Assembly: GCA_964016885.1 (NCBI GenBank)
Contig: OZ024744.1
Coordinates: forward strand, 84,010,001-84,074,000
Length of the DNA stretch: 64,000 bases
Direction: 5' to 3'
Origin: Eledone cirrhosa
Lineage: Eukaryota
The translations under genes were made by a program, and so were the position numbers. Positions 3,307-47,171 of this stretch are shown piece after piece (the stretch's first letter is position 1; every line of letters starts with the position of its first letter). The notes beneath the pieces are model-generated. The model made no database searches. It had not been told where the DNA came from and was given only the letters and a program-made list of their open reading frames with translations.

Positions 3307-4080
3307 GTGGAGTGTAAGAGCGATGACGTCCTTAGGGAGACTTTCCGGTCCAGTACTCCCGAGGAGTTTTGCCAGTTCGATATACGCCTTACATGATTGA
3401 AAGTGCCGTCAGCTAGACCTGTGTAATCTGCGCGCAAGGTGATGAAACCATCATGCACGCACTCGTCGAGTATCCGAATATTGCTGAACTGTGGGGTTAT
3501 GTCGAGCACTTGCCGTCAGGTGTAGGACAGATCCGAATGTCAACTGAGACATTTGTGAAGATCACCCTGCCGTCTTCCTTTAGAAAAGAAGGACAAGCTG
3601 TTTTTATCTGCCAGGTGACCATGGCGAAAGAGATCGTGTGTTGGACCCATTTAAAAGAGTTGAAGACAGCCATATTCCTCTTCGGCAAAGCCCTGATTAA
3701 CTTTTTCAGATTTCACTTGAAGAGGAAAATTAGGGTGGAGAGGGAAGTGCTGCCTTTCAACCAGTTTCTTGAAAGGTGGGTGAGAGTGGTGAGCATGGTC
3801 CGTGTGAATGGGCCTGCCTTGAGTATACGCCTGTACATTGGAGTAGAAAAACTGGGAGATGACACTTTGCCCTAGCAGACAGGGTGATCGTGGCTTTTGT
3901 GGATTTCTACACGAGTGACTCCTTTGGGGAATTTGTATGTTTGTTTTAAAATGTTTATTTTCTTAGTCTCTGTTATAAATTTTATTTTACACAAAAAAGC
4001 CCACACTGTATGGTCCTGTGCCACTTTGATGTTTTCCTTAACATGAGCCCTGTGTGGCGAATAATGAAATTATCATTATT
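3307..4080 (+). mobile_element. 5'-truncated Tx1-type LINE (ORF2 C-terminus + 3' UTR)
   Basis: ORF 3453-3875 (HALVE...LWGYVE...MAKEIVCWT...FHLKRKIRVERE...ERWV) matches the ORF2 C-terminus of the larger copies; it ends gccctgtgtggcgaataatgaaatt followed by ATT repeats. Confidence 0.85.
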
Positions 4081-4250
4081 AACGCCCCTTTATGATGTGA
4101 TTTCAAATCCCGCCGAGGTTAACTTTGCCTTTCATCCTTACGGGGTCTATAAAATAATATACCAGTAATAATTGCTGGCCTTGTGGGATAATTGCTGGCC
4201 TTGTGCCCAAAATAGAAACAATTATTAATATTATTATTATTATTATTATT
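4081..4250 (+). mobile_element. 5'-truncated tRNA-derived SINE with (ATT)n tail
   Basis: ttcaaatcccgccgaggttaactttgcctttcatccttacggggtc...ataattgctggccttgtg (duplicated)...aatagaaacaattatt. Confidence 0.85.
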
Positions 4251-4478
4251 GGACGCACATGTGTGAAGATGTTACAAGTCTTAGGGGAAAAGGGTTCGTA
4301 ACTTTAAGCTGTTTTAAAGTATAATTTATTGTATTTTCTTGTCGATAACGAAGCATAAGGTACCCACCTTGGTTCCAAGGAAGGGGAAACCTCTCAATAT
4401 TCGGGCTTTAAACCCGAATATTCAGATTTATTTTAAAAAACTCAGAAAAAAAAATCGCTTCTCTATCAAAAATGAAAT

Positions 4479-4556
4479 ATGGAAAATGTCGACCTTAAAA
4501 CAGTAAACAACGTACGTGTCAAAAGTTAAAAAACAACCACTATAGAGCTCACCACA

Positions 4557-4630
<74 letters not shown>

Positions 4631-6483
4631 AGACAAGCCTGTCGCCCATCCCACTGAATACAAAAACAAAACACAAAAGTTAACATCACAACCTTTTGTG
4701 ATAGTAACAGTACCATCTCACAATGACATCACCACCACCGCCGCCACCAGCAACACCGCCTCCACCAACACAACAACAACTCAGATCAACAACGACAATA
4801 ACACCGACAGCCTCAATGTAAACACTGATGGCGGCGGCAACAGCAACAGCAGCAAACAAAAAAACAACAAGAGCAAGAACGACAACACCACCAGCAAGAG
4901 CAACGGAGGTACCACCTTTGCAGCGACAGCACCGAAAACAAAGCGCTTTTTCAATGTAGATATTAGCGATAAGGAGCAGCAGTTGGCCCAGGCGTGGATG
5001 TTAATTAAACGAGAGAAGTCCTGGGCTAAACTGACCATCCCGGAGGTGGAAGTAGCGACCATGTAAAGGAGGACGGTGTACTTTCGATGCATTTCAGTGC
5101 TGACACACAAAGTAGAACTCGCCAGCCAAGCAGAGGTCGAGGCTGCTTTGAGGTGTATCGGAAGTGACATCTAGTATATAGCAAGGGCCAAGCAGTTCTG
5201 TACCATCTCAGTACTGTTCAAAACCGAGGCCCTTGCTATTAAGCACTCGGTGACCCTCTGCAGAACGGAACGCATTATCATGCACCCGTCCCACACGGGC
5301 AAAAGGACAGTAAAGGTCCGCATTCCCAGGATCCCACCAGGAATGTATATATGATGGATCCTGGGATGCGTAATCGAGGAGGGGACAGACACTACTCTCC
5401 TAGATATCAAAAGGACAGAGAGAGAGAAGACTGGTCCGTAATGGATTGTGAGATTCTTCTCCAAATGAAACCAGAGGACATCAACAACATACCGTATTTT
5501 TCCCGCCTGCAAGACGGGACAACAATCCAATTAATCGCTGAGGGAGGAAGGCCGCACTGCTTCGTCTGCGGGGAAGCAACGCATCTGCAATCCTTCTGCC
5601 CTCAGCTAAAAAATGCAGGTGGTTGCAAATCTGCTTTGTTGCCAACGCCAGTGTCAGCACGGAAAGCTGCACCACCACCACCAAAAACAACACCAACAAA
5701 GACACGGGTAACCCCACTAACGTAAAAAAACAGCCGGACCACCACCAGCACCGAAACCAATCCAATGGGAAAACTAGGAAATCTCTCCCACTCCCCTACC
5801 CCTCCAATTATACACATATACAAAACAATAAACGCACACACAGAGACAGATACACTCACAGCCACAGACCCTTTGTCTTCCAGCAGCGAAGCTGAAGGAA
5901 AGCCCAAAAGTGCAAAAAAAAAAGCCCCAACAAAACACAAAAACATACACAACAAAAAATACAGACACAACTAACGCAAACACTTCCCCAATAACATCAG
6001 CACCAACAGCAACATCGACACCACCCCCACAATCCCCGAAACGCAAACAACCTAAACAAACACAAGTACAAATAAACACACAAATACCTGAAATTGCAGA
6101 CACCACACCTACTTCAAACACAGACATACCCGAAACAACATCACCAAAACCATCACCACCACAGTCACCAAAACGAAAACAAATAAAACCACACCAACAA
6201 AATGTTAAAAACTTCGTGCTTGTCAGAAGGGCCAATGATAAACTGATGGCCCTCTTAGCATGAAGCGAGGACGTTCAAACAGGGGGGGGGGGCTTTGAAA
6301 TGAGCACATTTGGCGTGCCAAAACATTTGCTTTTGGTCCGAATGTCGCTCGAGCCTTCATCAAGACGTGGGAACCCCGAATGTGAAACCCACATCGAGAA
6401 TTTTAATGGGCTTCCCAAAAGAAACCCCACCAACCATGGAGGTCGAACCACCCGACCTTCACAAGACCCCGGGAGGTAAGTAA
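4479..6483 (+). pseudogene. Tx1 ORF1 (gag-like nucleic-acid-binding protein), frameshifted
   Basis: Low-complexity T/N N-terminus, TFAA motif, zinc knuckle EGGRPHCFVCGEATHLQSFC (ORF 5351-5725), P/T/K-rich tail; ends ...KTPGGK* at 6481-6483. Confidence 0.8.
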
Positions 6484-6515
6484 ACCTTCCCTCTCTCTTT
6501 TAGCTTGCCAACATG
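6474..6515 (+). promoter_or_regulatory. Conserved ORF1/ORF2 junction: AGGTAAGT + pyrimidine tract + CAAC-ATG (also 34445-34477 on -, 49516-49558, 54076-54120, 61434-61477)
   Basis: Identical 8-mer matching the 5' splice-site consensus overlaps the ORF1 stop in all five copies; function is inferred. Confidence 0.7.
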
Positions 6516-9500
6516 GCCATATTAAGAGTAGGAAGTTTAAATGTTCGCGGCCTGGGTTTACCCTGGAAGCAGGGTCGCCTGCTCAACGACCTCAGGTCGC
6601 TAGAAATGGATGTGATTGCTGTCAGCGAGAATTTCCGACACGCATTAGCCCCCATTTTCGACGAGTATCAGATTTTCGCATCTGTTAGCAGGCCGGGAAT
6701 GGGAGGTGGGGTCGCAGTGCTGTTTAGGAAAGGTCTGGATCTCGAGGTAAGGTCGATCTTCCGGGACCCGGACGGTAAGTTGGTGGTTTTGGATGTGAGC
6801 AGTAGCGAAGGTGGTGCCTTTAGACTGCTGGCCGTCTACGCCCCTACAGGGGCCGGACGACCGGACTTCTTTAGGCGCCTGGAGACCTTTCTGGGTACGT
6901 CTCGCCCTTTACTGTAAGCGGGGGACTGGAACGGCATCTTAGACGCAAACTGGGATTGTGTGGGAGTAGCTGATAAGAGCGGGGGGTGCAAAAGCCTCAA
7001 CCACCTAATCAGCCAGTTCCAACTGTCTGACAGGTATCGACTAGATTTCCCCAATTCGCCAGCATGGATATGTACAAACCGCATGGGGTCATCTAGATCG
7101 TATATAGACAGGATCTTCATTAGGAAAATAGATAAAAATAGTGTAGGCTGCCCACTTTTTAAAACGGTCACCTATTCAGATCACAAATTTGCGATCTGTA
7201 TGGTCCACCTAGATAAAACGCGTAGGTTGGGACCGGGTTACTTGAAGCTGAGCATATCATTTCCGGCACGTAAGGCTTACAGGGACCGAGTCAACAATTA
7301 ATTAAGCAAAAGTTGACTTGGGGGGGGGGGGGGGGATCATCAACAACAGATGGTGGGGGGCTCTCAAAAGAGAGATTAGATTAACTTCGATAGTGTTCAG
7401 CAAAGAACTAGTATTAGAGAAAAATAGAAAGGAGGGGGAGCTGGTAGATAAGTTAGACGAGGCTATTTGTAGTAGCATTGCAACTGACGTGCTAGCGGCG
7501 AGAATGGCATTAGACCATTTCTTCAATGCGAAACACGAAGTTTGCATTGTCAGAGCTAAGGCGCGTGCGCTGAGAAACAAGGGGACCAAAGCTGTTCGAT
7601 GGGCCCGCGTGGCAGAGTAGCAGCGTGGTAATAAAACCACAATTCGGTCTTTGGCGGACCGAGACGGACACGAGATAAGCGATTCCAAGCGGATGTGTGA
7701 GGCCTTTCGCCAGCACTTTTCTCGGTTGTTAGGGGAGAGTGGCGAGTCAGAGAGAGTAGCGGATTTCAGTCCCTACCTTGACGGCTTGCCGTGCATCTCA
7801 ACAGTCGACGCTGAGCGCAGCGAAAGGCCGATTACTTCAGCCGAAATTCAGGACGCTCTTGTCGGCTGCATGAGACGCAAGTCACCCTGTTTGGATGGCC
7901 TGCTCTACGAGCTTTACGTAAATATGCCAGATTTGTTCTCCGATCTCCTCGAAGCACTCTACTGCAACTGACAGCAAAATGGGAGTATTCCCAGTTCTGT
8001 GAGCTGGGGAGTTGTGACGCTGATAAAGAAAGACGAGAATAAGAGGGATACATTAGACAACTTCAGGCCCATAACTTTGCTCAATACAGAGTTTAAGATT
8101 TTGGCCAAGGTGTTAGCAAAGAGATTAGCGCTTGTCGTCGAGGATTTGGTTGGAGAGGCGCAAACTTGCGCAATCCCATTCAGATCCATACACGACAATC
8201 TCCATCTCATGCGATACATCATAGAGAGTGTAGGGTGTAAACCTGGCTTCGGTGGGGCACTGATCAATTTAGATCAATCAAAAGTATTCGATAAGGTCGA
8301 AAATCGGTATCTGGAGTTTGTCCTCAAAGTGGCTGGCTTCGGCCCTGTCTTCAGAAGCTGGATCGCTGCAATGCACAGCGGCACGCGCTCGGTGGTCAAG
8401 GTTAATGGCCACCACTCGGAAGCATTTCGGCTCTCCCGATCGGTCCGTCAAGGGTGCCCTCTCTCTTCCCTTCTGTACGTATTGACTCTCGAGCCTTTAC
8501 TGCGGAAACTGAAGCTGTTGCAGGGCATATCGCTCTAACCGGGACGCGGAAAGGCAGTGTCGGCTTATGCGGATGACATCACCGTGATTGTGTCGGACAC
8601 CTCAGTAATCGAGGTGGTCGGCACCTTATTGAAGGAATATGAAAGGTTGACAGGAGCCAAACTTAACCCAGAAAAGTCGGCGGGGAGGGCTTGTAGCTCG
8701 GAATCTGGGGAGGCAAGCCTATGCCGCCCAAAAGCGTCGTAGGGCGCTGGACGGACGGACCGGTAAAGTTGCTCGGGGTTTGATTCGGACCAGTCCTCCA
8801 GGTGGATAAGAAATGGGATGAGGTAACGAGCAGAGTAGCCAGTCTCACCCAAAAATCGGCTGGGAGGAAGCTATCACTGAAAGGTTGCGCGGATGGGCGA
8901 ACGCGTGCTTCGCGTCCATCATCGACTACGGCCTGACCGTCGTGCCTTGCCCCCGTCCGCGCCTCATAAGTTGGAACGGCTCCTCTTCCAATTCTTGTGG
9001 AGGGGACAATTGGTGAGGCGGTCCATCTGCTGCCAGCACCCTCTACACCGAGGGCTGGTCGTGCTGTGGCTAATGACGCGCCGATATGCGTTGATCTGCG
9101 ACATCTCCCGATATTCTGCCTAAACGGTGATCAGGTGTGGTCGCTGTTTATCAGATGGGCCTTTCCGCAGCTCGTTTCTTTGACTGAGCTGCAGTCCTGG
9201 GTCAAGAAGAAACCGAGACTGGGTGACTGGTACCTGGAATGTTGCCAGGCACTCACAGCCCTCTGCCAAGCGTCGAGTTCTATAGAGGATTAGTGGTGGG
9301 CAAATGCGATTACACACTCGGAGAAGCTTTGGGCCTCGACGAAGTCGAACTGCCCAGTCCGTACCGGAGGACTTTCGAGTCGGGGATGATGGACAATTTC
9401 CAGAAATCCCTCGCTTGGCAGTACTACCGGGGGGCACTGCCGGTTCGGGATAAACTCTACAGGCACGGAAGTGCTGTCAGACGGATCTGCCCAAGATGCG

Positions 9501-9820
9501 CACAGAACGACGAAACCGTTCTGCATGCACTTGTCCTGTGTCCGTGCATTACTAACTTGTGGAGATATGTCGAACAGCTACTGTCGCGTGTGGAACGAAT
9601 CCGGCTATCGGCCGAGTCCATAGTGAAGATCGATCCATCGCGTTCCTTAGGTCAGGAGAAGCAGGAAATTTTTCTCTGTCTGGTGGCAGTTGCGAAAGAG
9701 GTTATATGGTGGACCAGATTAAAAGGACTGAAGACAGACACTTTTCTCTTCGGCCAATCCCTCCTCAACTACTTCAAGTTTCACCTGGAAAGGAAGGTGA
9801 GTGTGGAGAGAGAAGTGCAA
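6513..9820 (+). pseudogene. Tx1 ORF2 (AP endonuclease-reverse transcriptase), disrupted
   Basis: APE motifs SLNVRGL, AVYAP, GDWN, SYIDRIF, YSDHK; RT motifs NFRPITLLNTEFKILAK, LDQSK.FD.V, VRQGCPLS, AYADD; C-terminal CPRC...ETVLHALVLC. Confidence 0.92.
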
Positions 9821-9903
9821 ACCCCACAGTCCCTATCTTTGTATTGTCCCCTACATGTCGGTCCTTGTGGCTAATAAATGAAATCATTATTATTATTATT
9901 ATA

Positions 9904-10120
9904 GGGCGGTGGATTGGCAGTATCGGTAGAAGGTCGGACGCCATGCTTTGACGTATGGAGTTACGGCCCTTGCCATTCTGAGTTCAAATCCCGCCGAGGT
10001 TAACTTTGCCTTTCATCCTTACGGGTCGATAAAATAAAGTACCAGTAATACACTGGGTAATTGCTGGCCTTGTGCCAAAAAGTAGAAACAATTATTATTA
10101 TTGTTATTATTATTATTATA
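9904..10120 (+). mobile_element. Full-length tRNA-derived SINE (Deu/Nin-type central domain) with (ATT)n tail
   Basis: Box A tggcagtatcgg, box B gagttcaaatccc, core gcctttcatccttacgggtcgataaaataaagtaccag, tail gctggccttgtgccaaaaagtagaaacaattatt. Confidence 0.9.
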
Positions 10121-12258
10121 GTTGCATTTATCTTGCTTTATGTTCATACGAGTTATCACCAAGTCACAACCAGTGACCTCAAGAGACAACAAGGTCCGCC
10201 ATGTTCAAGAAAGAACATACATACACAGACATGCATCTTTAGGTGTTTAGACTTGTGATATACTTATATTGACAGACTCTTCCTTAGTATATGGGCAGTT
10301 CCCATTATTACTATCTTTTGTATTTCTCCTATACGCGGGTTTCCTGGGATTTGCGATAAGTAATCATTAGACCCCTTAGGTATCATTCCTAGAGCGCCTA
10401 CAACCACTGGTATTGTTTTAGTTCTCAATTTCCACATTTTTCCAACTTCTATCTCTAGGTCCTTATACTTGCTCAATTTTTAAAATGTTTTTATAGATAA
10501 ATTCTTGTCTATTGGAACCGACATATCAATTAGCAGGCATACCCTCTTTTTAAAGTCTTTTAGTATTAAATCAGGTCTATTTGCATCTATTTTTCGGTCT
10601 GTTTGGATGCTAAAGTTCCACAAGATTGAGATGTGATCTTTTTCAAATATGGGAGGTGGTTGATGCTCCCACCAATTCTTTTGATGGGCAGGTCAAAATG
10701 CTTACACATTATCCAATGTATGTATTGTGCAGCTCTGTCATGCCTGTTTAGGTATTCGGCATAATGGGCTGCATCCATTTTTTATTATGTTGGCTTGGTA
10801 ATTTTTTGTTGGCAGACACTGATCTTGTGCTGATATAATCAGTCCTTCAGTCTCCGATTTCAGTCCAGAGGATGCCAACCACTGATGGGTTAAAATGTTG
10901 TCAACATCAGGATTGTTAGCTCTTTCTGGGTATTTTCCATACAGAGGCTTTTCTTGCCATTTCTTAGCCAGTTTCTGTAGCAGTTCTTTCTTTGCAGTTA
11001 CTTTTACCTGCTTTGCTTTTCTGTGTTTTCCATTTCAGCAGTAAATGGGACTTCTGAAATTTGTAGTCCATTACTGTATCTTTGTGTATCTTTTGTAATG
11101 GAGTATGATCTAATGATGCTTTCGTGTTTCAAAACGAATTTGATCATCCAATCATGTGATTCCCTTAGATATGTAGATAATCCAATTTTTGCAGTTTTCA
11201 ACGCAATATCTAACTGGATTAACCCACGTCCTCCTTCTTTCCTAGGGAGATATATTCTATCTGCATCTGCCTTAGGGTGATGCATTCTGTGCATGGTTAA
11301 GAATTTTCTAATTTTTGTATCAAGCCTACGGATCTCTGTGCTTGACCAGTTGATGACATTGAAACTGTAGGTTACTACTGGTATGGCAAGCGTGTTTATG
11401 GCATCGATCCTATTCCTTGCATTCAATTCCGTTCTTAAGATTGCTCTTACTCTGCGGTAACATTCCTTCCTTATCCTTTCCCTCATTGTTTATGGCTTGA
11501 TTCCGTCTCCTTCACAAACACCTAGATATTTGTAAGTTTCCTTTTCATAAAGTTCTCATATCACATTCCCCCGATCAAGATTAATGTCTGAACTTTTCAG
11601 CAGCTTTCCTCTGGTGAACGTTGCTTTGGCGCATTTATCTAGTCCAAACTCCATTTTAATGTCATCACTGAACTGCTCCACAGTGGATAATAGCCCTTGC
11701 AATTGTTCATCATTTTTTGCAAATAGTTTCAGGTCATCCATGTAGAACAAGTGATTAATGGTTTTGTCGTAGACTTTATATCCATGTTTTGTTTCATTGA
11801 GCGTTTTACTTAATGGTATAAGTGCGATGCAGAATAAAAGCGGTGATAAAGAATCACCCTGAAAAATTCCACAATTAATATTAACTTCTCCAGCTTCCAG
11901 TGATTTTGTTTCACTATTCAAAAGAAGTGTCGTTTTCCATGTCTTCATACTGAATGACAAGATCCCCTGACAACGGGAGATATTTTGAAAATCTCTAAAC
12001 ATTTTTCAATCCAACTGTGTGGCAAACTATCGAATGCTTTTTTATAATCTATCCAAGCAATTGATAGATTTTTGTGTCTATTATGACAATCTTCCAGTAT
12101 CATTTTGTTAACCAAACGCTGATCCTTACAGCCATATGAGCCTCCTTTACACCCTTTCTGCTCATTGGGAAATAGGTCATTTGTTATCAGGTGGTCATAT
12201 GTATATTCAGTTAGGACTGATGTTAACATTTTATTCATTTTATTATACATTTTATACA
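10121..12258 (-). mobile_element. 5'-truncated R4/Dong-type non-LTR retrotransposon (RT + REL endonuclease)
   Basis: EQKGCKGGSYGCKDQ, AWIDYKKAFDSLPH, GIFQGDSLSPLLF, LFYMDDLKLFA, RIYLPRKEGGRGL, KYKDL, VVGALG, IQKIVIMGTAHILRK; closely matches 43284-45420; bounded by (TAA)n. Confidence 0.92.
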
Positions 12259-12274
12259 TTATTATTATTATTAT

Positions 12275-12465
12275 TAGCAGTATCGGTAGAGGGTCGGACG
12301 CCATGCTTTCCAGCATAGGTACGTTCCTTTACGATCTGAGTTCAAATCCCGCCGAGGTTGACTTTGCCTTTCATCCTTACGGGGTTGATAAAATAATGTA
12401 CCAGTAATGAACTGAGTAATTGCTGGCCTTGTGCCTAAAGTAAAAACAATTATTATTATTATTAT
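12275..12465 (+). mobile_element. tRNA-derived SINE with (ATT)n tail
   Basis: Same box A/B, core and tail as the 9904 copy. Confidence 0.88.
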
Positions 12466-12722
12466 TGAGAGAGGGGGCTTGCTCTGGTGGTCACGGTGGC
12501 CGTGGTCTTTTGTGTGGTTTTCGCCACGAGTAACCCTCGGAGATTTCTTCCCTATTGAAGAATTTTTCATTGTTTCAATTTTCATTTTTATTGTTTATAT
12601 ATATATATGTTTCCGTCCTTTTTTTCTTTTTAAAATATTTACACGCACAAAACCCACATCGTACCGTCCTGTGCCGTCTGTAATGTTTTTCTTGATGTCA
12701 GCCCTTGTGGCCAATAAAGAAA

Positions 12723-12778
<56 letters not shown>

Positions 12779-23005: not shown

Positions 23006-23009
23006 TTTA

Positions 23010-23200
23010 CTAATTGCTCACTTCCGCAGTGCCACCCTCTGAATACAGGCCCGAAGTCCGCTGTCTTGAGGACTGTTGCCATGAATCGAAAGCTTTTGAT
23101 TGATCTAAGTTGATCAGGTCCCAACCAGTGATAGATCCCTTAACCACCCTCTTTATGATGTATCGCATAAAGTGGAGGTTGTTGGTGAATGGATCAAAGA
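23010..23200 (-). mobile_element. Tx1 RT fragment
   Basis: NNLHFMRYII...LINLDQSKAFD. Confidence 0.75.
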
Positions 23201-25935: not shown

Positions 25936-26140
25936 TAATAATAATAATAATTGTTTCTACTTTTGGCACAAGGCCAGCAATTATCCCAGTGCATTAATGG
26001 TTCTTTATTTTATCGACCCCGTAAGGATGAAAGGCAAAGTTAACCTTGGCAGATTTTGAATACAGAACGTAAAGGGCCATAACTCTATGCGGCAAAGAAT
26101 GATGTCCGACCCTCTACCGATACAGCCAATCCACCACCCC
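25936..26140 (-). mobile_element. tRNA-derived SINE with apparent target-site duplication
   Basis: Reverse complement of the 9904 SINE; ataagactaataataataat is present on both sides (~25929 and ~26146). Confidence 0.85.
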
Positions 26141-26152
26141 TAAGAATAAGAC

Positions 26153-26356
26153 TAATAATAATAATAATCTTTCTACTTTTGGCACAAGGCCATCAATTAC
26201 TCCAGTGCATTACTGGTACTTTATTTTATCGACTCCGTAAGGATCAAAGACAAAGTTAACTTCGGCGGGTTTTAAGCACAGAACGTAAAGAGCCATAACT
26301 CTATGCTGCAAAGCATGGTGTCTGACGCTCTACCGATACTGCCAAACCAACGCTCT
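26153..26356 (-). mobile_element. tRNA-derived SINE
   Basis: Reverse complement of the same SINE, flanked by (TAA)n. Confidence 0.85.
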
Positions 26357-30159: not shown

Positions 30160-30893
30160 ATATAGATAGATTTCTTTATTAACCACAAGGGCGCAACAAG
30201 AAAGGGGACAATACAAAGACATGCCGGGGATTTTACATACAGTCGTGTAAAAAATATAAAAACAAACAATTTCAACAATCGAAATCCCCAATAGGGGGGA
30301 GGCGTCACAAATGGGTTGTTTAATACCCCGTCGATAGAACAACCCTCAACTCAAGGAGCGTGTTGTGTAAGTGCTCCTTTCTTCCTTTTGCTCTCTTCCT
30401 CAACCCACAGGCTTATAAACAGAGAAGGCCCAATCATTCGGGCCATTTTCGCTTCATTCACCCACCTTTCAGTAAATTTACTGGGGTGCAGTGCCTCTCT
30501 CTCCACCCTGATTCTCCTTCTAAAGTGATACTTAAAGAATGGAATCAATTGTTGTCCGGAGAGAAAGACATCTGTCCTCAGTCCTCTCAACCTCGTCCAC
30601 CATATAACTTCTTTCACCATAGCCACCGTACAGAGGAAAACCGCCTCTCTTTCGTTTTTGAAAGAGTCTGGTGGTTTGATCCTTACTATGGACGCGGCAG
30701 TCAACTGTATTTGTCCCATACGCGACAGCAGTTGTTCTGCATAGTTCCACAGGTCGCTTACGCCCGGGCAGTGTACAATTGCGTGCAGAACTGTTTCAAT
30801 GTCCTGCGCACATCTTGGACACGTCCTCTTGGAAGGATCCCTGCCAGGGCGTCCGTGCCTGTAGATCTTGTCACGAACCGGTAGAGCTCCTCG
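30160..30893 (-). mobile_element. 5'-truncated Tx1 LINE (B1) with TCTA-type tail
   Basis: ORF 30351-30719 is the ORF2 C-terminus; tail is gcccttgtggttaataaagaaatctatcta. Confidence 0.88.
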
Positions 30894-33800
30894 AGATAGG
30901 CAGATAGACAGATAGACAGATAGATAACTTTCTTTTTATTTGCCACCAGGGCATCAAAAATGGGACAAGTACAAAGGGGGGAGTTTACATGCAGAGGCGT
31001 CCACAATATGGAGGAGGCAATAACAAGATATAAAAGTATAAAAATAAAATAAAACATAACAAAATAAATTTCATAACAATATCCTCAATAGGGAGGAGGC
31101 GCCTTGGGGGGTCGCACACACCCCCGAAAAAAAGTGTGCAACCCTTCTCCTCAGGAGCACAGAGACGGTGTGCTCCCTTGGTCTTTCATCTTCCTCACCT
31201 ATAGTCTGATGTAGAGTGAAGGCCCATTCACACGGGCCATTCTCGCCAATTTCATCCATCTTTCATAAAAACGGCTGGGGTGCAGCACCTCTTTCTCTAT
31301 CCTGATCCTTCTTCCGAAATGATATCGGAAGAAACGGACCAGTTGTTGGCCAGAGAGAAAGGTGTCTTACCTCAGTCCTTTCAGACGCGTCCACCATACA
31401 ACCTCTTTCGCCATGGCTATTACGCACAGAAACACCGCCTCTCCTTCGTTTTTGAAGAGGGGAGGCGGCTTGATCGTTACAATAGACTCGGTGGTCAACC
31501 GGATCGGTCCCACCCTTGACAGCAATTGTTCGACATAGCCCCACAGATCAGCAATGCCCGAGCAGTGTACCAATGCGTGTACAACGGTTTCCTCGTGGCA
31601 CACGCATCTGGGACAGATCTTTTTCGAGGGGTCCCTACCCGGGCGCCCGTGTCTGTAGAGCCTTTCTCGAACAGGCAGAGCCCCTCGGTAGCACTGCCAG
31701 GCCAGGGACCTCTGGAAGTTATCCATGCGTCCCGGGCTGAATATCCTAACGAACAGGTTGTCCAGTTCGTCTTCCTCCATGCCTAGGGCTTCTCCGAGGG
31801 CGTCGTCGCACCTGCTAACCACCAGCCCTCTATAGAATGACGAGGTGGATTCTCCACTGACAGCCGGGTCCGCCTGCCAGAGAGCCGTGAGTGCCTGGGC
31901 ACACTCGGTGTGCCAGGCGCCCAGTTTTCTCGGTCTTTGCTTGACCCAGGATTGCAGCTCGGTGAGCGAGACGAGTCTGGGGAAGGCTCGCCTCACAAAC
32001 GGGGCCCACACCGGTTGACTGGTGAGGAATACCTGGAGGTGCCGTAGCCTTAATGCGTGTTTACGTATCATTAGCCACGGCAACCCCAGCCCTCCTTTCT
32101 AAGGGTGTTGACAGCAGATCGATCTCCTCACCATAGGAGCCCGCTTCTTCCAAAGGAATTGGAAGAGTGCACGCTCCATTTTGGCGAGCGTTTCCCTTGG
32201 GCAAGGCACAACGGTCAGGCGGTAGTAGATCACGGACGCTATATAAGTGTTCGCCACCTCTGCCCGACCTTTCAGGGACAGTTTGCACTCGGCCCACTTC
32301 TGGGTCAGTGCAAACACCCTGTTCGTTACCTCACCCCAGTTCTTCTCCACCTGGAGGTCTGGTCCGAACCAGAACCCGAGCAACCTCACCGGGCCCTCCG
32401 TCCAGCACCCGACGACGCCATCCCGGTTCTAACGGGATGCCCTGCAACAACTCCAACTTCCGCAGCAGTGGCTCTAGAGTCATACAGAAGGGAGGAGAGA
32501 GGGCACCCTTGTCGGATGGACCGCGCGATTTCGAACGGCTCCGAGAGGTAGCCGTTCACCTTGACCCTAGAGCAGATGCAGCTGCTATGCATGGTATTGA
32601 TCCAGCCCATGAAAACGGGTCCGAAGCCTGCCGCCGCTAGCACCGCATCCAGGTAACCATGGTCGACCCTATCGAACGCCTTAGATTGATCCAAGATGAT
32701 CAGGGCCCCACCAAAGCCGGGTTCGTTCCCAACCCTCTCTATGATGTATCGCATGAGGTGGATGTTGTCGTGGATGGACCTGGACGGGATAACACATGTC
32801 TGCGCATCTCCCACCAGGTTGCCCACGACAAGCGCCAACCTCTTTGCTAGCACCTTGGCCAAAATCTGTAACTCTGTATTTAGCAGAGTTATGTGCCTGA
32901 AATTATTCATATCGTCCCCCTTGTTCTCGTCCTTCCTCACTAGCGTGACTACGCCCTTGGTTACAGCACAGGGAATTCTCCCGTTCTGTTGCCAGTTGCA
33001 GTAGACCGCCTCGAGGAGATCGGGGAACAAGTCCGGCATAGCTAGATAGTGTACGTATGGAAGACCATCGAGACCCGGGGATTTGCGTTTGCCGCATTGG
33101 CTCAGCACGTCCTCTATCTCAGCGGCTGAAATCAGCTCCTCGCAGGACTTCCCTCCTTGCTCGAGAGACGCGGCAGGCCGTCGAGGTATGGACCGAAGTC
33201 CACATCCCCAACCGGCTCGCCGCCCCTTTCGAACAATCCGGCAAAGTGTTTTTGAAAAGCCTCGCACATCTGCTTAGGCTCAAGGATCACCCGTCCATCC
33301 TGGTCTAGCAAAGACCGGATAGTGGATCTGCTCCCTCTTTTGGCTTCTGTCACGTGGGCCCAGCTAACAGCTTTGGTCCCCTCGTTTCCCAGAGCACTAT
33401 TTTGCTTCGGACGATTCAGCCTTCGTGTTTCGCGTCGAAGAACTGGCCCAGGGCCGTTCTCAACGCTAACACTCTGGCCACGTCGCCGCTTCTAATTGCC
33501 TCTTCTACACTATCTACCAGCTCCCTTTCCTTCCTAGTTCTATTTGAGGCTAACTCCTTACTAAATTCTATAGAGGCTACTCTAATCTCCCTTTTGAGAG
33601 ATCCCCACCACCTGCTGTTGACGATGGCGCCCGTCAACCGCTCCTTAACTAAAGTGCTAATCCGGACCCTGTAAGCCTTACTTGCCGGTAAGGTCAAGTT
33701 GAGCTTCCAGTAACCGGGTCCCTGTCTATGCGTTCTGTTAAGGTTGACCATGCAGCTCACTAACTTGTGGTCTGAATAGCCAACCATGCTCATTTTTGGA

Positions 33801-35706
33801 CAACTTAAAAAGTCCTTATCCTTATTTGTAACTAAGAACCTATCTAGGTTCGACCTAGATGATCCGCTGCGATTTGTCCAAGTCCAGGTTGGCGTAGTCA
33901 GAAAATCTAGTCGATATCTATCGGCCAGGTCAAATCGACCGATTAACCCTTTGAGGCTATTACACCCTTCTCTATCGGGACAAGCCCCTACGTAGTCCCA
34001 ACGTGCATCTAGGATACCATTCCAGTCCCCCACTAATAGCAAGGAGCGGGACGTCCTTAGAAAAGTCTCCAGACGATGGAAGAAGTCCGGCCGCATTGAC
34101 CCGAAAGGGCCGTAGGCGGCTACCAACCTAAACGCTCCGCCTTCACCACTGCCAAGTTCCAGAACCACTAGTGGACCCTCCGGGTCCAAATGTACCGTCT
34201 GTGTTGCGAGACCCAGAATTTTTTGCAGCAGAACGACAACGCCACCCCCACCTCCTAGCTGACAGAGAGATGCGTGCATCTCAAAGTCATCAAAGGTGGG
34301 GGCCAGCTGTCGCATGTTGCTGATCCGGGCCTCGCAAATAACCATCACATCTATACGTTGTAGCCTGAGGTCATATAGAAGCATTGCTTGCTTCCAAGTT
34401 GAGCCCAGGCCACGCGCATTTAAACAGCCTACTCTTAGCATAGCCATGTTGGTGGTGAAGAGAAAAGGCACTTACCTCTCTGCGTCCCGGGTATCGGTTT
34501 GCACAATTTCCATGAGGGTGGGGGATGGGTTGTTGGGTGGGGTGGTGGTTTGTGGAAGTGTAGGGGCATCAGTGTGTTGTATGGTTGGGGTGTTTGGAGT
34601 TGTGTGAAAGTTTGGGGAGGGGGTGGGGTAGTTTTTTTAGGAGGACGCGGTTAATGGGCTCGACGCAGGGGAGGGGGCCCACGTCCTCTTTAAAGTTGTT
34701 TTTTAAAGTTTTATAAGTGTCCTTTGGGGCCTTAATCATTTTGAGGTGGGGGAAATCCCCTGCCTGGGTGAAGTTAGGCTCCTGGGATTTTATTAAATTG
34801 TTGTTGTACACAATGTTTAACAGTTTTTTGTTTCTTGTGTTTATGTATGTGTATGCATGTTTTTGTTTTTTGTGTGGTGTTTTTTTGTTTGCTGTTGTTG
34901 TGTGCTCTTTTGTGTTGGTATCAGTGTTATGTTTTGGGGAGGATTTGTTTTCATTTGTGTCTGAGGTGTGTTTTCTTTTTTTCTTTTGATTGTGTGGAAG
35001 TGCTCCTCCTCGTCTGACGACGAACTAGGGTCATCTTCCGCGTTGTAGGGGAGGGGTATATTTTCGGGTTGTGTTTGCGGTGCGGGTGTTTTGGAAATTG
35101 TTTTTTTTTTTAGTGGGGGGGATGGGTTGGACATTGTTTTGTTTTGGTTTGAGCTGTGGTTGTTGTTTTTGTAGTGGTAGTTGTGGTGATTGTGTTGGTT
35201 GTGCAGTTGTTGGTGGTGCAGGCAGGATTGGGGTTTTCTTATTAAGTTGGGGACAGACAGCCCTCAGGTGACCTCTGGTTCCACAGAGGTAACACGAGGG
35301 CCGCCTACCCTCGACGGTAATGTTGATGAAAATTTGATCATCCAGTATGACGCGTTCAGGGATCTGGGCAATCCTTTCGGGCCTCATTTGAACTACAAGT
35401 TCGAGGCTCGTTCCACTGAACGCGTCATCCGATGCCTTTCCCATGGACACCAGCGTGTCATCATCCAGGTTCAGGAAACCTGTCAAAACCCACCATATGT
35501 CCATAATCGGCAGGATTGTGTGGATTTTTATTTTTTGTGTCCTTCTACCCATATACGTAGGGTAGAAGGTGTACACGGTGGATGTAATTGGTTTGATGGA
35601 CAGTTTCACTGCTGTGTCCCTGTCCTTCATGCGAATGGATAGACTCCCGTAGAGTCTATCCTTCTGAATGAAGGTGATGTCCTTCATGACGTCTTTTAAA
35701 ACCAGC
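30894..35706 (-). mobile_element. Tx1 LINE copy B2, 5'-truncated in ORF1, embedded in (TCTA)n
   Basis: ORF1 knuckle EGRRPSCYLCGTRGHLRAVC; ORF2 from the ATG at 34447 (MAMLRVGCLNARG), GDWNG, YSDHK, LDQSKAFDRVDH, IRQGCPLS, CPRC...ETVVHALVHC; tail aataaaaagaaagttatctatctgtcta. Confidence 0.93.
31199..34447 (-). pseudogene. Tx1 ORF2 (APE-RT), frameshifted
   Basis: ORFs 33416-34471, 32386-33267, 32099-32389 and 31367-32083 are consecutive pieces of one APE-RT protein. Confidence 0.9.
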
Positions 35707-35711
35707 TAGAC

Positions 35712-35770
<59 letters not shown>

Positions 35771-35777
35771 AAGATAA

Positions 35778-35871
<94 letters not shown>
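35707..35871. repeat. (GATA)n tetranucleotide microsatellite
   Basis: About 40 GATA units. Confidence 0.95.
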
Positions 35872-35872
<1 letters not shown>

Positions 35873-35894
35873 TTATGTGATCTATGATTTCATT

Positions 35895-35963
35895 TAGGCA
35901 CAAATGTTTCTCTGGCTCTCTCTTTCGGATTTTCACCGAGACAGGCTCCAGATCGTCAGCCTA
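35895..35963 (-). ncRNA. Hammerhead-like motif with extended stem II and non-canonical G at the cleavage position
   Basis: Minus strand: tagg-CTGACGA-tctgg...ccaga-GAAA-catttg-TG-ccta. Confidence 0.65.
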
Positions 35964-36286: not shown

Positions 36287-36680
36287 AGTGGATTGGCAGT
36301 ATCGGTAGAGAGTCGGACACCATGCTTTGAAGCATAGAGTTACCTCCCTTTATGATCTGAGTTCAAATCCCGCCGAGGTTAACTTTGCCTTTCATCCTTA
36401 CGGGGTCGATAAAATAAAGTACCAGTAATGTACTGGGTAATTGCTGGCCTTGTGTCTAAAATAGAAACAAGTATATATTATACATAGGCGGTGGATTAGC
36501 AGTATCGGTAGAGGGTCGGACGCCATGCTTTGACGCAAAGAGTTACGGCCCCTTCCATTCTGAGTTCAAATCCCGCCGAGGTTAACTTTGCCTTTCATCC
36601 TTACGGGGTCGATAAAATAAAGTACCAGTAATACACTGTGTAATTGCTGGCCTTGTGCCAAAAGTGGAAACAATTATATA
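36287..36680 (+). mobile_element. Two tandem tRNA-derived SINE copies (36287-36472 and 36486-36680)
   Basis: Each has box A, gagttcaaatccc, the gcctttcatccttacggggtcgataaaat core and the gctggccttgtg tail; an older SINE-like fragment precedes them at ~36145-36265. Confidence 0.9.
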
Positions 36681-38360: not shown

Positions 38361-38469
38361 ACGCGCGCGTGTGTGTGCGTGTGTATTTGTGTGTATGTCC
38401 GTTGGCGCATACGTATGTACTGGCCTAAATCTTCACTATTTGCTTTTACTATTTTAAGGCAAAGTTAAA

Positions 38470-38572
38470 ATCCCGTCGATATTAACTTTGCCTTTCATCC
38501 TTACGAGGTCGATAAAATAAAGTACCAGTAATGTACTGAGTAATGTACTGCCAAAAGTAGAAACAACTATTT
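38470..38572 (+). mobile_element. Partial SINE (core and tail)
   Basis: ttaactttgcctttcatccttacgaggtcgataaaataaagtaccagtaatgtactg...ccaaaagtagaaac. Confidence 0.8.
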
Positions 38573-40954: not shown

Positions 40955-41673
40955 CACACACAGAAATGTATATATATTTCTTAGAACAAAATTATTATTA
41001 ATGTTTTGCTGTTCATAACAATTGGAATTGAAAAATTACTTTTGAAATTATTAGTTATTTTACTAATGCTTAGATATGTAAAAATGAAGCAATGTTTCTA
41101 ATAATTGTTTCTACTTTTGGCACAAGGCCAGCAATTACCAGTACATTACTGGTGCTTTATTTTATCGACCCCGTGAGGATGAAAGGCAAAGTTAACCTCG
41201 GCGGTATTTGAACTCAGACCGTAAAGGGACGTAACTCCATGCTATGAAGCATGGTGTCCGACTCTCTACAGATTCTGCCAATCCACCGCCCTAATGTCTG
41301 TACGTAATGAGCGAGTGAGAGGGGAGAGAAAGAAAGGCAGAGGTGAAGTGACGAAGTGACTCTCTCCTCCTCCTCCTCCTCCATCTCCCCATTCGTCACA
41401 GCGATAGAGGGGAGGAATGTTAGTGTGTTACAAAGAGAAAGAGTGAGGGTGAGAAAAACAGACAGACTAAAAGAGAGGGATAGCTGGAGAGAGAGAGAGA
41501 TAGCAACAGATACAGTACAGTAGCTAAGGGATGTATATATATTTCTGTGTGTATATATACATTTCTGTGTGTGTAATATATATATATATATACACACAGA
41601 AATATATATACATTTCTGTGTGTGTATATATATATATATATATATTACACACACTGAAATGTATATATATTTC

Positions 41674-42088: not shown

Positions 42089-43283
42089 TGTATGCAGAAT
42101 CCATTGTTTACCTTAGCCAAAGTTCTATGTTTCTATTCAAAAGTTATCCTGGTTTATTTTGTCAGCTCATTAACATTCTTATTCATGTTTACCGAGAATT
42201 GCAGACCTTATCTTAAACTGGACTACAACCAACTTAGGATTGGTTTTGAATTCGTTGCTCATAAATCTTTCGAGCGTATGTTTCGTACTAACAGTAGTGT
42301 TGACTTTTGTTTCTATTAAACAAGATGGAAAAAGAAAACTGTATTTTAGTCTCATGACTCCATTCAAGAATGATGTAGTCTTTTCTTTATCTTGCTATAT
42401 GATGGTGACATCGTAATCATTAGATCCCAAGTTCAATCTCATCGTATGGATTGTTAGGTAAGTTTTATTTACCAAAACCTTGGGTCAACTCGTGTTAATG
42501 AGTGAAATTGGGTAAGCAGATACTGTTTGGAAACCCGCCGAATAGACTATACTTGTTATTCAAAAAGCTAGCGATGTCACGCACTCTGACAGACTCAATA
42601 TCCTTGAATATTACATTAGCGATACACATTTCTGTGAACTACACGTTAATTTCATGAGCAGGCTTTTCCATAAATAAAACAACTGGAACACTCTTCGACG
42701 AAACTAATGGCCGTCTATTCCTTCCTTCTTTTCTTTCTTCTTTCTTTCCTTTCTTCATTCCTTCTTCCTTCCTTCTTTTTTTTTCTACATGGTGAATGTG
42801 CTTGCATTTATTCCACCGGTTGGTCTTTTTGATACTTTTTTATGAACTGTGGAAAAACGCGCCAAATAGGATGCTGATTCTATATTTCAATGAAGCTTAT
42901 ATCTTTAGAATAATTCATCCTGAATGACAAGATAAAACGTTATCTAATATTCTTGCAGGAAGAGTAGAGAATGAAATCGTCCAAGAAGAGGGTACGAAAA
43001 TAGTCGTATTGAAATTTCGTTCCATTTTTAAATCCCTTCTAAATGTTTATGCTGTGTTATTTCAACAAATGAAATTCAAGCATGTGTTGAACTATGCTAT
43101 TTGAAACATAGTATATAACCTTTTAAGTATTTCGTTTAACCTCGAATATAAATGAACTTTTGAATTTCTGATAATAACTTTTACTTTGTTAAATTATATT
43201 TATTTTCTTATTTGATAAAACGATAACCTAAAAATATGTTTAAAATACATTTCTTCTTCTTCTTAATATTATTATTATTATTA

Positions 43284-46200
43284 CAGTTGCATTTATCTTG
43301 CTTTATACGAGTTATCACCAAGTCACAACCAGTGACGTCAAGAGACAACCAGGTCCGCCATGTTCAAGAAAGAACATACATACTCACACATGCATCTTTA
43401 GTGTTTAGACTTGTGATGTACTTATATTGACAGAATCTTCCTTAGTATATGGGCAGTTCCCATTAGTACTATCTTTTGTATTTCTCCTATACGCGGGTTT
43501 CCTGGGATTTGCGATAAGTAATCATTAGACCCCTTAGGTATCATTCACAGAGCGCCTACAACCACTGGTATTGTTTTAGTTCTCAATTTCCACATTTTTC
43601 CAATTTATATCGTCAGGTCCTTATACTTGCTCAATTTTTCAAATGTTTTTATAGATGCATTCTTGTCTATTGGAACGGACATATCAATTAGCAGGCATAC
43701 CCTCTTTTTAAAGTCCTTCAATATTATATCAGGTCTATTTGCATCTATTTTTCGGTCTGTTTGGATGCTAAAGTTCCACAAGATTGAGATGTGATCTTTT
43801 TCAAGTATGCGAGGTGGTTGATGCTCCCACCAATTCTTTTGATGGGGCAGGTCAAAATGCTTACACATTATCCAATGTATGTATTGTGCAGCTCTGTCAT
43901 GCCTGTTTAGGTATTCGGTTGGAGCTATAGGACTGCACATAGAAATTATATGATCAATAGTCGCTGGTTGTTTTTTGCATACACGGCATAATGGGCTGCA
44001 TCCATTTTTTATTATGTTGGTTTGGTAATTTTTTGTTGGCAGACACTGATCTTGTGCTGATATAATCAGTCCTTCAGTCTCCGATTTCAGTCCAGAGGAT
44101 GCCAACCACTGATGGGTTAAAGTGTTGTCAACATCAGGATTGTTAGCTCGCTCTGGGTATTTTCCATACAGAGGCTTTTCTTGCCATTTCTTAGCCAGTT
44201 TCTGTAGCAGTTCTTTCTTTGCAGTTACTTTTACCTGCTTTGCTTTTTCTGTGTTTTCCATTTCAGCAGTAAATGGGACTTCTGAAATTTGTAGTCCATT
44301 ACTGTATCTTTGTGCATCTTTTGTAATGTAATATGATCTTTTGATGCTTTAGTGTTTCAAAACGAGTTTGATCATCCAATCATGTGATTCCCTTAGATAT
44401 GTAGATAAGCCAATTGTTGCAGTTTTCAACGCAATGTCTAACTGGATTAATCCACGTCCTCCTTCTTTCCTAGGGAGATATATTCTATCTGTATCTGCCT
44501 TAGGGTTATGCATTCTGTGCATGGTCAAGAATCTCTGTGCTTGACCAGTTGATGACATTGTAACTGTAGGTTACTACTGGTATGGCAAGCGTGTTTATGG
44601 CTTCGATCCTATTCCTTGCATTCAATTCCGTTCTTAAGATTGCTCTTACTCTGCGGTAACATTCCTTCCTTATCCTTTCCCTCATTGTCGAGTGCTTGAT
44701 TCCGTCTCCTTCACAAACACCTAGATATTTGTAAGTTTCCTCTTGATCAAGTTCTCTTATCACATTCCCTCGATCAAGATTATTGTCTGAACTTTTCAGC
44801 AGCTTTCCTCTGGTGAACGTTGCTCTGGCGCATTTATCTAGTCCAAACTCCATTTTAATGTCATCACTGAACTGCTTCACACTGGATAATAGCCCTTGCA
44901 ATTGTTCATCATTTTTTGCAAATAGTTTCAGGTCATCCATGTAGAACAAGTGATTAATGGTTTTCTCATAGATTTTATATCCATGCTTTGTTTCATTGAG
45001 CATTTTACTTAATGGTATAAGTGCGATGCAGAATAAAAGCGGTGATAAAGAGTCACCCTGAAAAATTCCACAATTAATATTAACTTCTCCAGCTTCCAGT
45101 GATTTTGTTTCACTATTCAAAAGGAGTGTCGTTTTCCATGTCTTCATACTGAATGACAAAAACCTCCTGACAACGGGGGATATTTTGAAAATCTCTAAAC
45201 ATTTTTCAATCCATGCTTTTTTATAATCTATCCAAGCAATCGATAGATTTTTGTGTCTATTATGACAATCTTCCAGTATCATTTTGTTAACCAGAAGCTG
45301 ATCCTTACAGCCATATGAGCCTCGTTTACACCCTTTCTGCTCAATGGGAAATAGGTCATTTGTTATCAGGTGGTCATATGTGTATTTAGTTAGGACTGAT
45401 GTTAAAATTTTATACATTGTGGTCAAGCAAGTTATCGGTCTGTAATTTTTGGGATTGTTTGTCTCATCATTCTTCGGAAGCAGGAATGTAATGCCGTTAA
45501 CTAGCCATGATGGTATCTTTCTGGCTCCTTAACTATTTCATTGTAAAGTTGGGCTAACAGCTCATGAGACTCTGTGAAGGCATTTATCCAAAAGTTTTGT
45601 ATTTTGTCTTTTCCTGGGGATTTCCATTTGCTGGTTTTTCTTAGAGCCAAGCGCAACTGTTCAACTGTTATATTTTCCCATATTTGTTCCTCAAGGTGAG
45701 CTGTATCTTTCATTTGTCTGTCTGTCCATGGGGCATGTATGTTATGAAATTTTTCTTCGGCCCAGATCTTTTCCCAGAATTCTTGCACTTCCTCCTTGGG
45801 TGGTATTGATTTAGCAGTTATTGTTGACTTACCAATTTTTCTGTAGAAGTTTCTTTGGTTGTTTTTGAACATATTATTGTCCTTATAGAATCTAGATCGT
45901 TTTTCAAAGCGCCTTATACGAGCAGCTTTGGCCGACACTTTTTGCTTGATTATTTCTATCAGCATGTCTATGTCACATGTTGATTTTATACTGTACTTTC
46001 TTTTCAATTTTCTAAGTTTAGTTTGTTTAACATGTTCACCTACTTTATAGTTTGTTAAAATTTCTATGTCAGATCGGAGAAGGTTTATTTGGCGATTGAT
46101 GTTCTCTTGCCAAGTAGATTTCTTATGGGAATTCCTTTGTTTTTTCATCTTCACTCCACATAAGTGAGTGGTGACTTTAGCCGATGCATAATAGAGATGA

Positions 46201-47114
46201 TTTAAATCAGTAATGTTTAGTTTGTTTGTGATGATAATGTTTTTGAGAATTATGTTAGTCTTGTGTATTATCTTTTAGTTCTGTTTGGAGTTCTGGATCT
46301 TAGGGAGGGTGTCTCGTTGCCCCATGTCAGATTCTTTCATTTTCATCCATTCGATCATAATTTCATCCTTCAAGTTGGCAAGTTCATTCTCATTCATTTC
46401 TTTATCATTTACGATCTCATTATTTTCATTTGGAGTTTCATCCTGAGCATGCACTCCCTCCACTTTTTCGATCCTTTCTTTAATTTGTTCTGTTGCCAGT
46501 GATTCCACCCCAACCCTGGGATTCGAAGTGTTACAGTTTACCTCGTTTTCACTGACACATGTTTCATTTTCCCTTCGCTGACTTTGTGCTAATAGCTTGA
46601 TCTGATCAATTTCTATATCAGTTAGTAACTTTTTTCTTACAATATCTCTTCGTATATTGGCTAGTTTGTTACTGTCAATATAGCCTCTGTTTTCGGGATG
46701 TTTCTTTTTCCAGTTGATATATGTCTGTTCTGCATTCGATGTATTTGATGGGTAGTACATGGCAGTGTAGAAAGCCTCAAGTACTTCTTTATTATCTTCC
46801 CTTGACCATTTTTCTCTCTTTTTCTTTGGATTTCTTGGTGGTGAGCATGGAGGGCCAACAGTAGGAGTATTCCGGTTATGGGAGGTCTCCAGCTCCGAAG
46901 TGATGGGAAGGTTTGAACCATTAGCTGATTTTTCGACCACAGTCTGGTTCCTCTCTGAGGGACGCGGCCCTTTTTGACCCGGGTGACGGCCGATCCGGTA
47001 TGAGATTTTATCATTAGACATTGACTTTATTTTGTCGCGTTTTATCCTTATCGGCCAAGGGGTAATCATTTCGTGTTACCACTTCTAGAACGAGTGTCAA
47101 CCAAGACTAGAGGG
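43284..47114 (-). mobile_element. Near full-length R4/Dong-type non-LTR retrotransposon inserted in (TAA)n
   Basis: Single long ORF broken into pieces 46275-47069, 45501-46154, 44506-45426, 44349-44558 and 43605-44261; KWKSPGKD, YMDD RT, CRVC...DHIISMC knuckle, RPDII...DMSVP...KLSKY REL endonuclease; (TAA)n at both ends. Confidence 0.94.

Positions 47115-47171
<57 letters not shown>
47115..47171. repeat. (TTA)n tract shared as 5' flank by Dong (-) and Tx1 (+)
   Basis: Directly visible. Confidence 0.95.

Follow-up and report, generated by a model that had tools for sequence, protein, structure and literature searches.

A predicted terminal hairpin common to an octopod SINE and Tx1-like LINEs suggests a SINE-Tx1 partnership

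In the L1 clade, stringent 3' tails are known from maize, sorghum and Chlamydomonas (PMC3472496, PMC3747384). Among more than 800 L1-clade LINEs, a 2013 review counts only three SINEs with L1-derived tails, all from plants or algae, and it leaves undecided if stringent RNA recognition is ancestral in this clade (PMC3747384). For zebrafish L2, the available portion of an experimental study reports that stems can be swapped and loops cannot (PMC4176376; the "Tx1" strings in that portion are names of mutant proteins and not the element). Mobilisation of a SINE by Tx1 has already been proposed for the crocodilian SINEU, where the available text bases it on target sharing (PMC4494074). Octopus annotations contain a SINE class called "tRNA-Deu", and the accessible parts of the octopus literature name no LINE partner for this class or for the octopus SINEs OK, OR1 and OR2 (PMC8967140, PMC13282606). 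In Octopus vulgaris, about 12% of the genome consists of SINEs, for which the accessible texts name no partner. OK, OR1 and OR2 are tRNA-SINEs that were reportedly described by Ohshima and Okada in 1994. The SINE analysed here may be one of these three or belong to the "tRNA-Deu" octopus class. In the open literature that our search covered, we found neither an octopus SINE-Tx1 pair nor an animal SINE with a Tx1-derived tail; a record of such a pair may already exist in Repbase, Dfam or subscription papers.

The window, that is, the whole repeat-rich stretch of 64 kb of Eledone cirrhosa DNA that was analysed, contains ten copies of a SINE, where 0.2 matches are expected by chance. The element is about 186 nt long, short, non-coding and dispersed, and its copies have a common 3' end. 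They are 4-15% off their majority sequence, with a mean identity between copies of 86%, and three are clearly 5'-truncated. A copy of about 187 nt (9904..10090, +) lies directly behind the 3' tail of copy A of the Tx1-like LINEs described below. A 5'-truncated copy (4077..4220, +), in which the hairpin region is partly duplicated, sits between the tail of the Tx1 fragment C' and the 5' end of Tx1 A, and a slightly 5'-truncated one (12276..12448, +) has (ATT)n on both sides. Two SINEs of different sub-variants stand head to tail at 36288..36672 (+), the second at 36487-36672; we regard this pair as two insertions because each member is closest to a different dispersed copy. Where a decayed R4-like element has its 3' (AAT)n, another head-to-tail pair (25952..26353, -) is found in opposite orientation to this element. 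The remaining copies are a 5'-truncated one with the hairpin deleted (38463..38565, +), one without a clean duplication (41106..41291, -) and one nested in Tx1 copy B (49074..49259, +), in which the outer stem pair is broken (A-C) and no clean duplication is seen.

Stretches resembling an A box (~9914) and a B box (~9980) were recognised in the SINE by eye, against a consensus. ARAGORN detected no tRNAs, and Rfam returned no tRNA match at E up to 1; none of its matches reached the gathering score, and most of them placed miRNA models on microsatellites. The core is possibly of the Deu/Nin type, a label that was given in the first-pass annotation of this DNA. In the portions of published supplements that were searched, core motifs had no match. 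An older SINE-like element at ~36060-36287 (+), which is single-copy in the window, has about 17 nt of core in common with the main SINE; its 3' region is different, and it thus possibly has another partner.

The window also contains several decayed APE-type LINEs, with ORF2 pieces that carry Exo_endo_phos, RVT_1 and zf-RVT and are collinear with homologues of 1150 aa. Copy A (4251..9885, +) is near-full-length and decayed, with an ORF1 knuckle, endonuclease, RT and zf-RVT; it has (ATT)n at both ends, and most of its 3'UTR is deleted. The 5'-truncated copy of family C (12467..12724, +) consists of 3'UTR only, between (ATT)6 and (ATT)18, and C' is a 3' fragment with an approximate 5' boundary (3351..4071, +). 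Copies D (30928..35706, -), within a (CTAT)n array, and D' (30170..30893, -), which ends in CTATCTAT, are both 5'-truncated and stand in tandem. Family B is not represented by any 3' end in the window. Smaller R4-like and Tx1-like fragments occur at 15366-15759 (+) and 22807-23186 (-), and long (ACT)n and (AAC)n runs within Tx1 ORF1 regions (4557-4630, 52543-52748 and 60441-60501) encode poly-Thr or poly-Asn. An ORF at 18766-19263 (+) resembles what is presumably a Penelope-type GIY-YIG endonuclease, for which Pfam gives no support in this ORF. Two adjacent tandem repeats (58148-58452 and 58548-58839) have units of 110 and 113 bp, with about 2.7 copies each.

The RT of the Tx1-like LINEs is nearest to L1 ORF2p among solved structures (E 2e-19 versus 2e-14 for R2), in a match list from which CR1, RTE and L2 references are absent, and an assignment to the L1 clade is supported. 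Within this clade, the elements likely represent the Tx1 group, as judged from their CCHC ORF1 (with weak Pfam scores) and from their microsatellite targeting. The CCHC knuckle is visible in ORF1, and Pfam reports it at E 0.017-0.12, under the curated cut-offs, in two of three knuckle-bearing pieces. Fish homologues of this ORF1 have ZCCHC3-type RNA-binding domains, and the accessible part of an earlier study ties ORF1s of that type to Tx1 (PMC5203782). The closest homologues are unnamed or hypothetical proteins; among the named homologues of the LINE proteins, one from Argonauta hians comes nearest, with 56-67% identity. Tx1 paralogues are 85-91% identical, and RT regions across families 71-79%. 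The last 28 nt of the five Tx1 copies are 63-86% identical, compared to 42-55% for the upstream 3'UTR (four copies).

It had been proposed from a first reading of the sequence that the tail of the SINE mimics that of Tx1. Both quoted ends exist, at 10066-10090 in the SINE and at 12701-12724 in Tx1, with (ATT)n after each. In the copy at 10066, five A's follow the hairpin where four had been quoted, and the copy at 36649 reads GTGGAAAC. In total, the window holds five Tx1-like 3' ends. Their loops lie at 12704, 9864 and 4050 (+) and at 30189 and 30949 (-), and the last four ends are the similar ones that had been noticed near 9861, 4046 and, on the minus strand, 30170 and 30930. In this order, tail-free ungapped identity to the SINE majority amounts to 16, 14, 12, 15 and 15 of 24 nt. 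With a gapped, end-anchored alignment of the last 30 nt, the score of the SINE against the five Tx1 ends was reached in 0, 0, 4, 0 and 0 of 2000 shuffles, a null for which three of nine SINE copies were used. We furthermore built a tail-free profile of the SINE ends from nine copies, leaving out copy 38463 because its hairpin is absent. Among 127,405 sites, this profile ranks the Tx1 ends 5, 9, 448, 11 and 7, where the end at rank 448 has a loop that is one base longer; since the five ends are homologous, they are not independent tests. The per-site p for four of the five is 5e-6 to 3e-5, based on 100 block-shuffled windows. With the reverse Tx1 profile, the nine SINE ends rank 1, 2, 4, 8, 9, 10, 14, 40 and 141 among 127,649 sites.

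When the profile was slid along the SINE, positive scores against the Tx1 ends were found in the terminal windows only. We observed no homology between SINE and Tx1 above the hairpin: over the 40 nt upstream, the two agree at 5-12 positions, and the likeness is limited to the last ~25 nt. From the shuffles, the profiles, the sliding and the upstream comparison, we conclude that the likeness between SINE and Tx1 is real, terminal and only about 24 nt long. At about 60% identity, the SINE tail is further from the Tx1 ends than these are from each other (63-86%); thus, its capture likely dates far back or involved a family outside the window. The bivalve SINE-LINE pairs in the available part of a recent report share 35-61 bp at 72-95% identity, and compared to these the match seen here (12-16 of 24 nt) is shorter and less identical (PMC11481361). 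A stretch at 35873-35900 (-), upstream of a (CTAT)n array, resembles a hybrid of the SINE and Tx1 ends and has a 13-nt exact match to the Tx1 A end (E 0.4); it is probably a chance match or a decayed end.

The part of the sequence that is common to the SINE and Tx1 includes a predicted hairpin, in which a stem of 3 bp carries a CUUGU loop, some 15 nt upstream of the tail. In the SINE it reads GGC-CTTGT-GCC (10066..10076, +), and in Tx1 C, the best 3'-end match to the SINE with 16 of 24 nt, it reads GCC-CTTGT-GGC and is followed by AATAAA (12701..12711, +). The two differences between these hairpins are both partners of one pair, which is G-C in the SINE and C-G in Tx1. The remaining Tx1 ends vary on the same theme, with a U-G middle pair in A (9861-9871, +), a 6-nt loop in C' (4047-4058, +), the loop CTGGT in D (30952-30942, -) and a G-U outer pair in D' (30192-30182, -). 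From an alignment of eight SINE and five Tx1 ends, RNAalifold predicts, unprompted, exactly these three hairpin pairs. Across the 12 distinct rows of this 13-row alignment, from which the SINEs 49074 (outer pair broken) and 38463 (hairpin deleted) were excluded, 36 of 36 stem cells pair, compared to 6-53% in slid controls. G-U variants of the stem occur in one SINE and two Tx1 copies. When two substitutions are placed at random in the 11-mer, 1.8% of cases give a Watson-Crick compensatory pair and in 30% the stem stays intact; the compensatory swap between SINE and Tx1 is a single event. A covariance model trained on both the SINE and the Tx1 groups, with tail bases included, is for that reason not an independent test; across the window it detected no new 3' ends beyond two held-out SINEs and two sites in Tx1 5'UTRs (E 0.17 and 0.25).

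The hairpin could also be a bystander. Tx1 might be the partner with a relaxed recognition, in which pairing of the AUU tail suffices and the shared 24 nt are a relic or a 3'-processing signal. The weak folding fits such a relaxed mode, as the z-scores of six 3' ends range from -1.6 to +0.8 and are no better than those of shuffles. Among the SINE copies, the hairpin probability spreads from 0.00 to 0.93 because an alternative hairpin competes. The SINE 38463 exists without a hairpin, which may have been lost after insertion, and the Tx1 hairpin is followed by AATAAA-like text that would suit a processing signal. SINEU has moreover been attributed to Tx1-Mar without a shared tail being found, as far as the available text goes (PMC4494074). 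However, loop and pairing are retained in the SINE whereas the AATAAA is not, and 15 of 15 stem cells are paired in the Tx1 copies, although RT identity between their families is 71-79%. We thus judge relaxed recognition to be rather improbable and prefer a recognised hairpin.

Compared to these Tx1-based readings, precedent points elsewhere. All partners of Deu and Nin SINEs in the available table of the 2013 review are CR1, L2, Crack or RSg-1 (PMC3747384), and those of bivalve SINEs, in the accessible part of the report, are CR1, CR1-Zenon, L2 and Nimb (PMC11481361). For O. vulgaris, the available text gives 633 LINE consensus sequences, including 176 RTE and 169 CR1, some of them recently active (PMC13282606). 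The real partner could thus be a CR1, L2 or RTE family outside the window, with the Tx1 likeness due to chance or an old relic and the co-occurrence due to a preference for (ATT)n. In the window, tblastn and profile HMMs detected only Tx1-like and R4-like pieces of LINEs, a search that short or decayed CR1 or RTE pieces could escape, and there are no CR1, RTE or L2 ends with which the SINE could be compared. By our own arithmetic, the number of hits expected by chance among 633 LINE consensus sequences is about 0.04 for the best score and about 0.2 for the weakest of the four good ones. Against a partner from these clades, the match between SINE and Tx1 is end-anchored, in register with the tail and compensatory, and we consider such a partner unlikely.

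The best match to the SINE end in the window lies in a 5'UTR. A hairpin of Tx1 family B at 47316..47346 (+), some 60 nt ahead of the start codon of ORF1, matches the SINE end at 18 of 24 nt and scores 22.4 bits, which none of 100 shuffled windows reaches (maximum 17.4). A second copy of this hairpin (60054..60084, +) marks the position where the homology of the two B copies begins, as if reverse transcription had stopped there. That B copy interrupts a fragment at 59538-60053 (+), which we take to be a Helitron-like helicase; the fragment has no Pfam hit and there is no microsatellite at the junction. A conserved hairpin 60-70 nt before ORF1 is present in both A and B, and that of A (4397-4423, +) is stronger, with a longer, perfect 10-bp stem (z -5.4) and a different loop. 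These findings raise the possibility that the SINE tail derives from or mimics the 5'UTR hairpin, or that the UTR captured a SINE end, with the 3' likeness being secondary; crocodilian Tx1 families, in the accessible part of the report, have 5' heads in common with SINEU (PMC4494074). We rejected the B 5'UTR as a decayed whole SINE, as it aligns to the SINE no better than shuffles do once the last 35 nt are left out (-0.9 versus a mean of -0.8). This also argues against a 5'UTR origin of the tail, as do the longer stem and different loop of the homologous hairpin in family A and the preferred fold in B, which has an 8-nt loop. Such an origin is very unlikely in our view. The 5'UTR match points to Tx1 rather than another clade and at the same time loosens the specificity for the 3' end. 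Speculatively, octopod Tx1 may have kept a stringent, loop-based recognition with a signal at both RNA ends, where the SINE tail is a minimal 24-nt mimic and targets have changed while the hairpin was kept. As doubtful as that is the associated division of labour, in which the 3' hairpin would license reverse transcription and the look-alike 5'UTR hairpin sits just before ORF1.

The LINEs that share the microsatellites of the SINE served as negative controls. Three R4/Dong-like elements occur in the window ("Dong" is the name from the first-pass annotation), and their best-preserved RT is nearest to R2. One, 5'-truncated, has an unrelated 3' end and opposite polarity (10120..12240, -), one is near-full-length with (TAA)n at both ends (43282..47115, -), and the third is a decayed R4-like element (23730-25936, +). 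That such an element mobilises the SINE could be suspected from their sharing of microsatellites: a Dong-like element sits in opposite orientation within the (ATT)n run at 10091..10119 (+), which comprises SINE tail and target. The Dong 3'UTR furthermore has a GAC-CTTGTT-GTC stretch about 75 nt from its end, and Dong-R4 is abundant and active in O. vulgaris. Yet the annotation was right that Dong differs in its 3' end and polarity, since the sense strand reads (TAA)n in all three R4-like elements and (ATT)n in the SINE and the ATT-associated Tx1 copies. The score of the SINE against the two Dong ends and the third R4-like end was reached in 674, 1612 and 1176 of 2000 shuffles, which is background. 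Against the SINE profile, these ends score -24 to -27 bits, and within the final 280 nt of the two Dong copies no profile hit exceeds -10.6 bits. We therefore rejected Dong as the partner on polarity and end score; polarity largely refutes it, and we find it scarcely conceivable.

The shared (ATT)n itself turned out to be weaker evidence than had been claimed. Among the Tx1 ends, (ATT)n follows at 12724, at 9885 and, loosely and in degenerate form, at 4071, but at 30170 and 30928 the ends continue into repeats of the (CTAT)n type. At least three ATT units are present at the 3' end in five of ten SINE copies but not in the other five, which run into short ATTAT-like sequence that begins the duplication where one is visible. 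Two of five Tx1 ends run into (CTAT)n, so that the tail is largely target microsatellite and its repeat unit varies with the Tx1 family; we therefore rejected the shared (ATT)n as evidence of a common RNA tail. The Tx1 families have specific preferences, with A and C in (ATT)n and D in (CTAT)n, and of the two B copies one starts after (ATT)n and the other within Helitron-like sequence. Family D, with its two tandem copies (30170-35872, -), targets (CTAT)n yet keeps the terminal hairpin. An (ATT)18 run at 47116-47171 is common to the 5' ends of a Dong-like element (-) and of Tx1 B (+), which stand back to back. At 3351-12778, a single (ATT)n holds a pile-up of Tx1, SINE, Tx1, SINE, reversed Dong, SINE and Tx1, and its six Tx1 and SINE copies all have the same orientation. 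This nested order is unusable for inferring concurrent activity because insertions into duplicated (ATT)n cannot be ordered. The single nesting that fixes an order is the SINE inside Tx1 B (49074), where the paralogous empty site looks like the final 11 nt of the SINE itself.

Target site duplications that include unique sequence were found for three of ten SINE copies. The SINE at 36487-36672 has a 16-bp duplication with one mismatch, SINE 38463 has one of 10 bp, and for the second SINE of the 25952..26353 pair the duplication comprises 8 bp of unique sequence and at most 15 bp of ATT. Tx1 D (30928..35706) is flanked by an exact 14-bp duplication in the (CTAT)n array. In random flanks, duplications of at least 16 bp occur in 0.4% and of at least 10 bp in 1.6%. 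CR1 and L2 make short duplications. According to the accessible part of a comparative study, duplications of the L1 clade are mostly 7-18 bp and those of animal RTE mostly not above 13, so that the 16-bp duplication is long for an animal RTE partner (PMC6007223). The observed lengths fit the L1-clade range better than that of animal RTE, from few informative sites (three SINE, one Tx1).

We consider it likely that the SINE is copied by a Tx1-like ORF2 protein that recognises the predicted 3-bp hairpin with the CUUGU loop about 15 nt from the RNA end. What the DNA presents is a sequence match, its terminal position, a compensatory stem difference, a shared (ATT)n polarity and duplications of similar length. 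Because an end of about 24 bases and the predicted hairpin are shared, the SINE likely borrows the Tx1 enzyme via a specific RNA signal and not via plain poly(A). The earlier inference that a Tx1/L1-clade RT reads a specific 3' RNA element thus gains from the hairpin with its compensatory pair, the conserved Tx1 termini and the compatible duplications, but loses some of its footing with the weaker (ATT)n. Mechanistically, the SINE would be transcribed by Pol III, and ORF2p would bind the loop on a short stem, which the protein would have to stabilise. At an ATT-rich site, the APE endonuclease would then nick the strand that reads (AAT)n. A few AUU bases at the end of the RNA would pair with the primer so that reverse transcription can begin, and second-strand cleavage about 10-16 bp away would produce the duplication. 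As Tx1 families keep the hairpin and differ in their target microsatellite, the likely partner is a family that targets ATT, for example C or one related to it. The 11-nt element would allow loop and stem to be mutated separately. If our reading is true, an animal Tx1 terminal hairpin copied by a SINE would support stringent recognition as the ancestral state in the L1 clade.

Lastly, we compared this pair to the known systems, as far as the accessible parts of the respective reports describe them. Like the crocodilian SINEU and Tx1-Mar, it would combine a Tx1-attributed SINE with a possibly shared target preference, tandem SINEs sandwiching a duplication and possibly overlapping ages (PMC4494074). 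SINEU carries a U1/U2 head and ends in poly(A), and in the available text no LINE with the 3' end of SINEU-1 was found and the link is target sharing; in the octopod SINE, by contrast, the link is a shared terminal sequence with a predicted hairpin, and the target is a microsatellite (PMC4494074). The insertion of each Tx1 family into a particular microsatellite resembles Kibi, Koshi and the crocodilian Tx1 that target (TTCC)n/(TTTC)n, but the octopod targets are (ATT)n and (CTAT)n, and for those other families the available text describes no SINE partner (PMC4494074). As in zebrafish ZfL2-1 and ZfL2-2, the identity of the loop is kept, the stem would be exchangeable and a terminal repeat follows (PMC4176376). 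The same loop on a different stem would fit what the zebrafish L2 stem-swap experiments predict, by analogy; ZfL2 belongs to the L2 clade and was demonstrated by experiment, whereas the octopod case is L1/Tx1-like and predicted only (PMC4176376). New with respect to the first reading is the predicted hairpin with a compensatory stem swap that is common to a SINE and Tx1. Its closest counterparts are the pairs of maize ZmSINE2/3 with LINE1-1_ZM and of Chlamydomonas SINEX-3_CR with L1-1_CR, in which a conserved L1-clade 3' end with a compensatory hairpin is likewise shared with a SINE (PMC3472496, PMC3747384). These pairs are from plants and algae and have 50-80 nt of homology and different loops (PMC3472496, PMC3747384), whereas the octopod pair is from an animal, involves a Tx1-like LINE, extends over about 24 nt and targets microsatellites.
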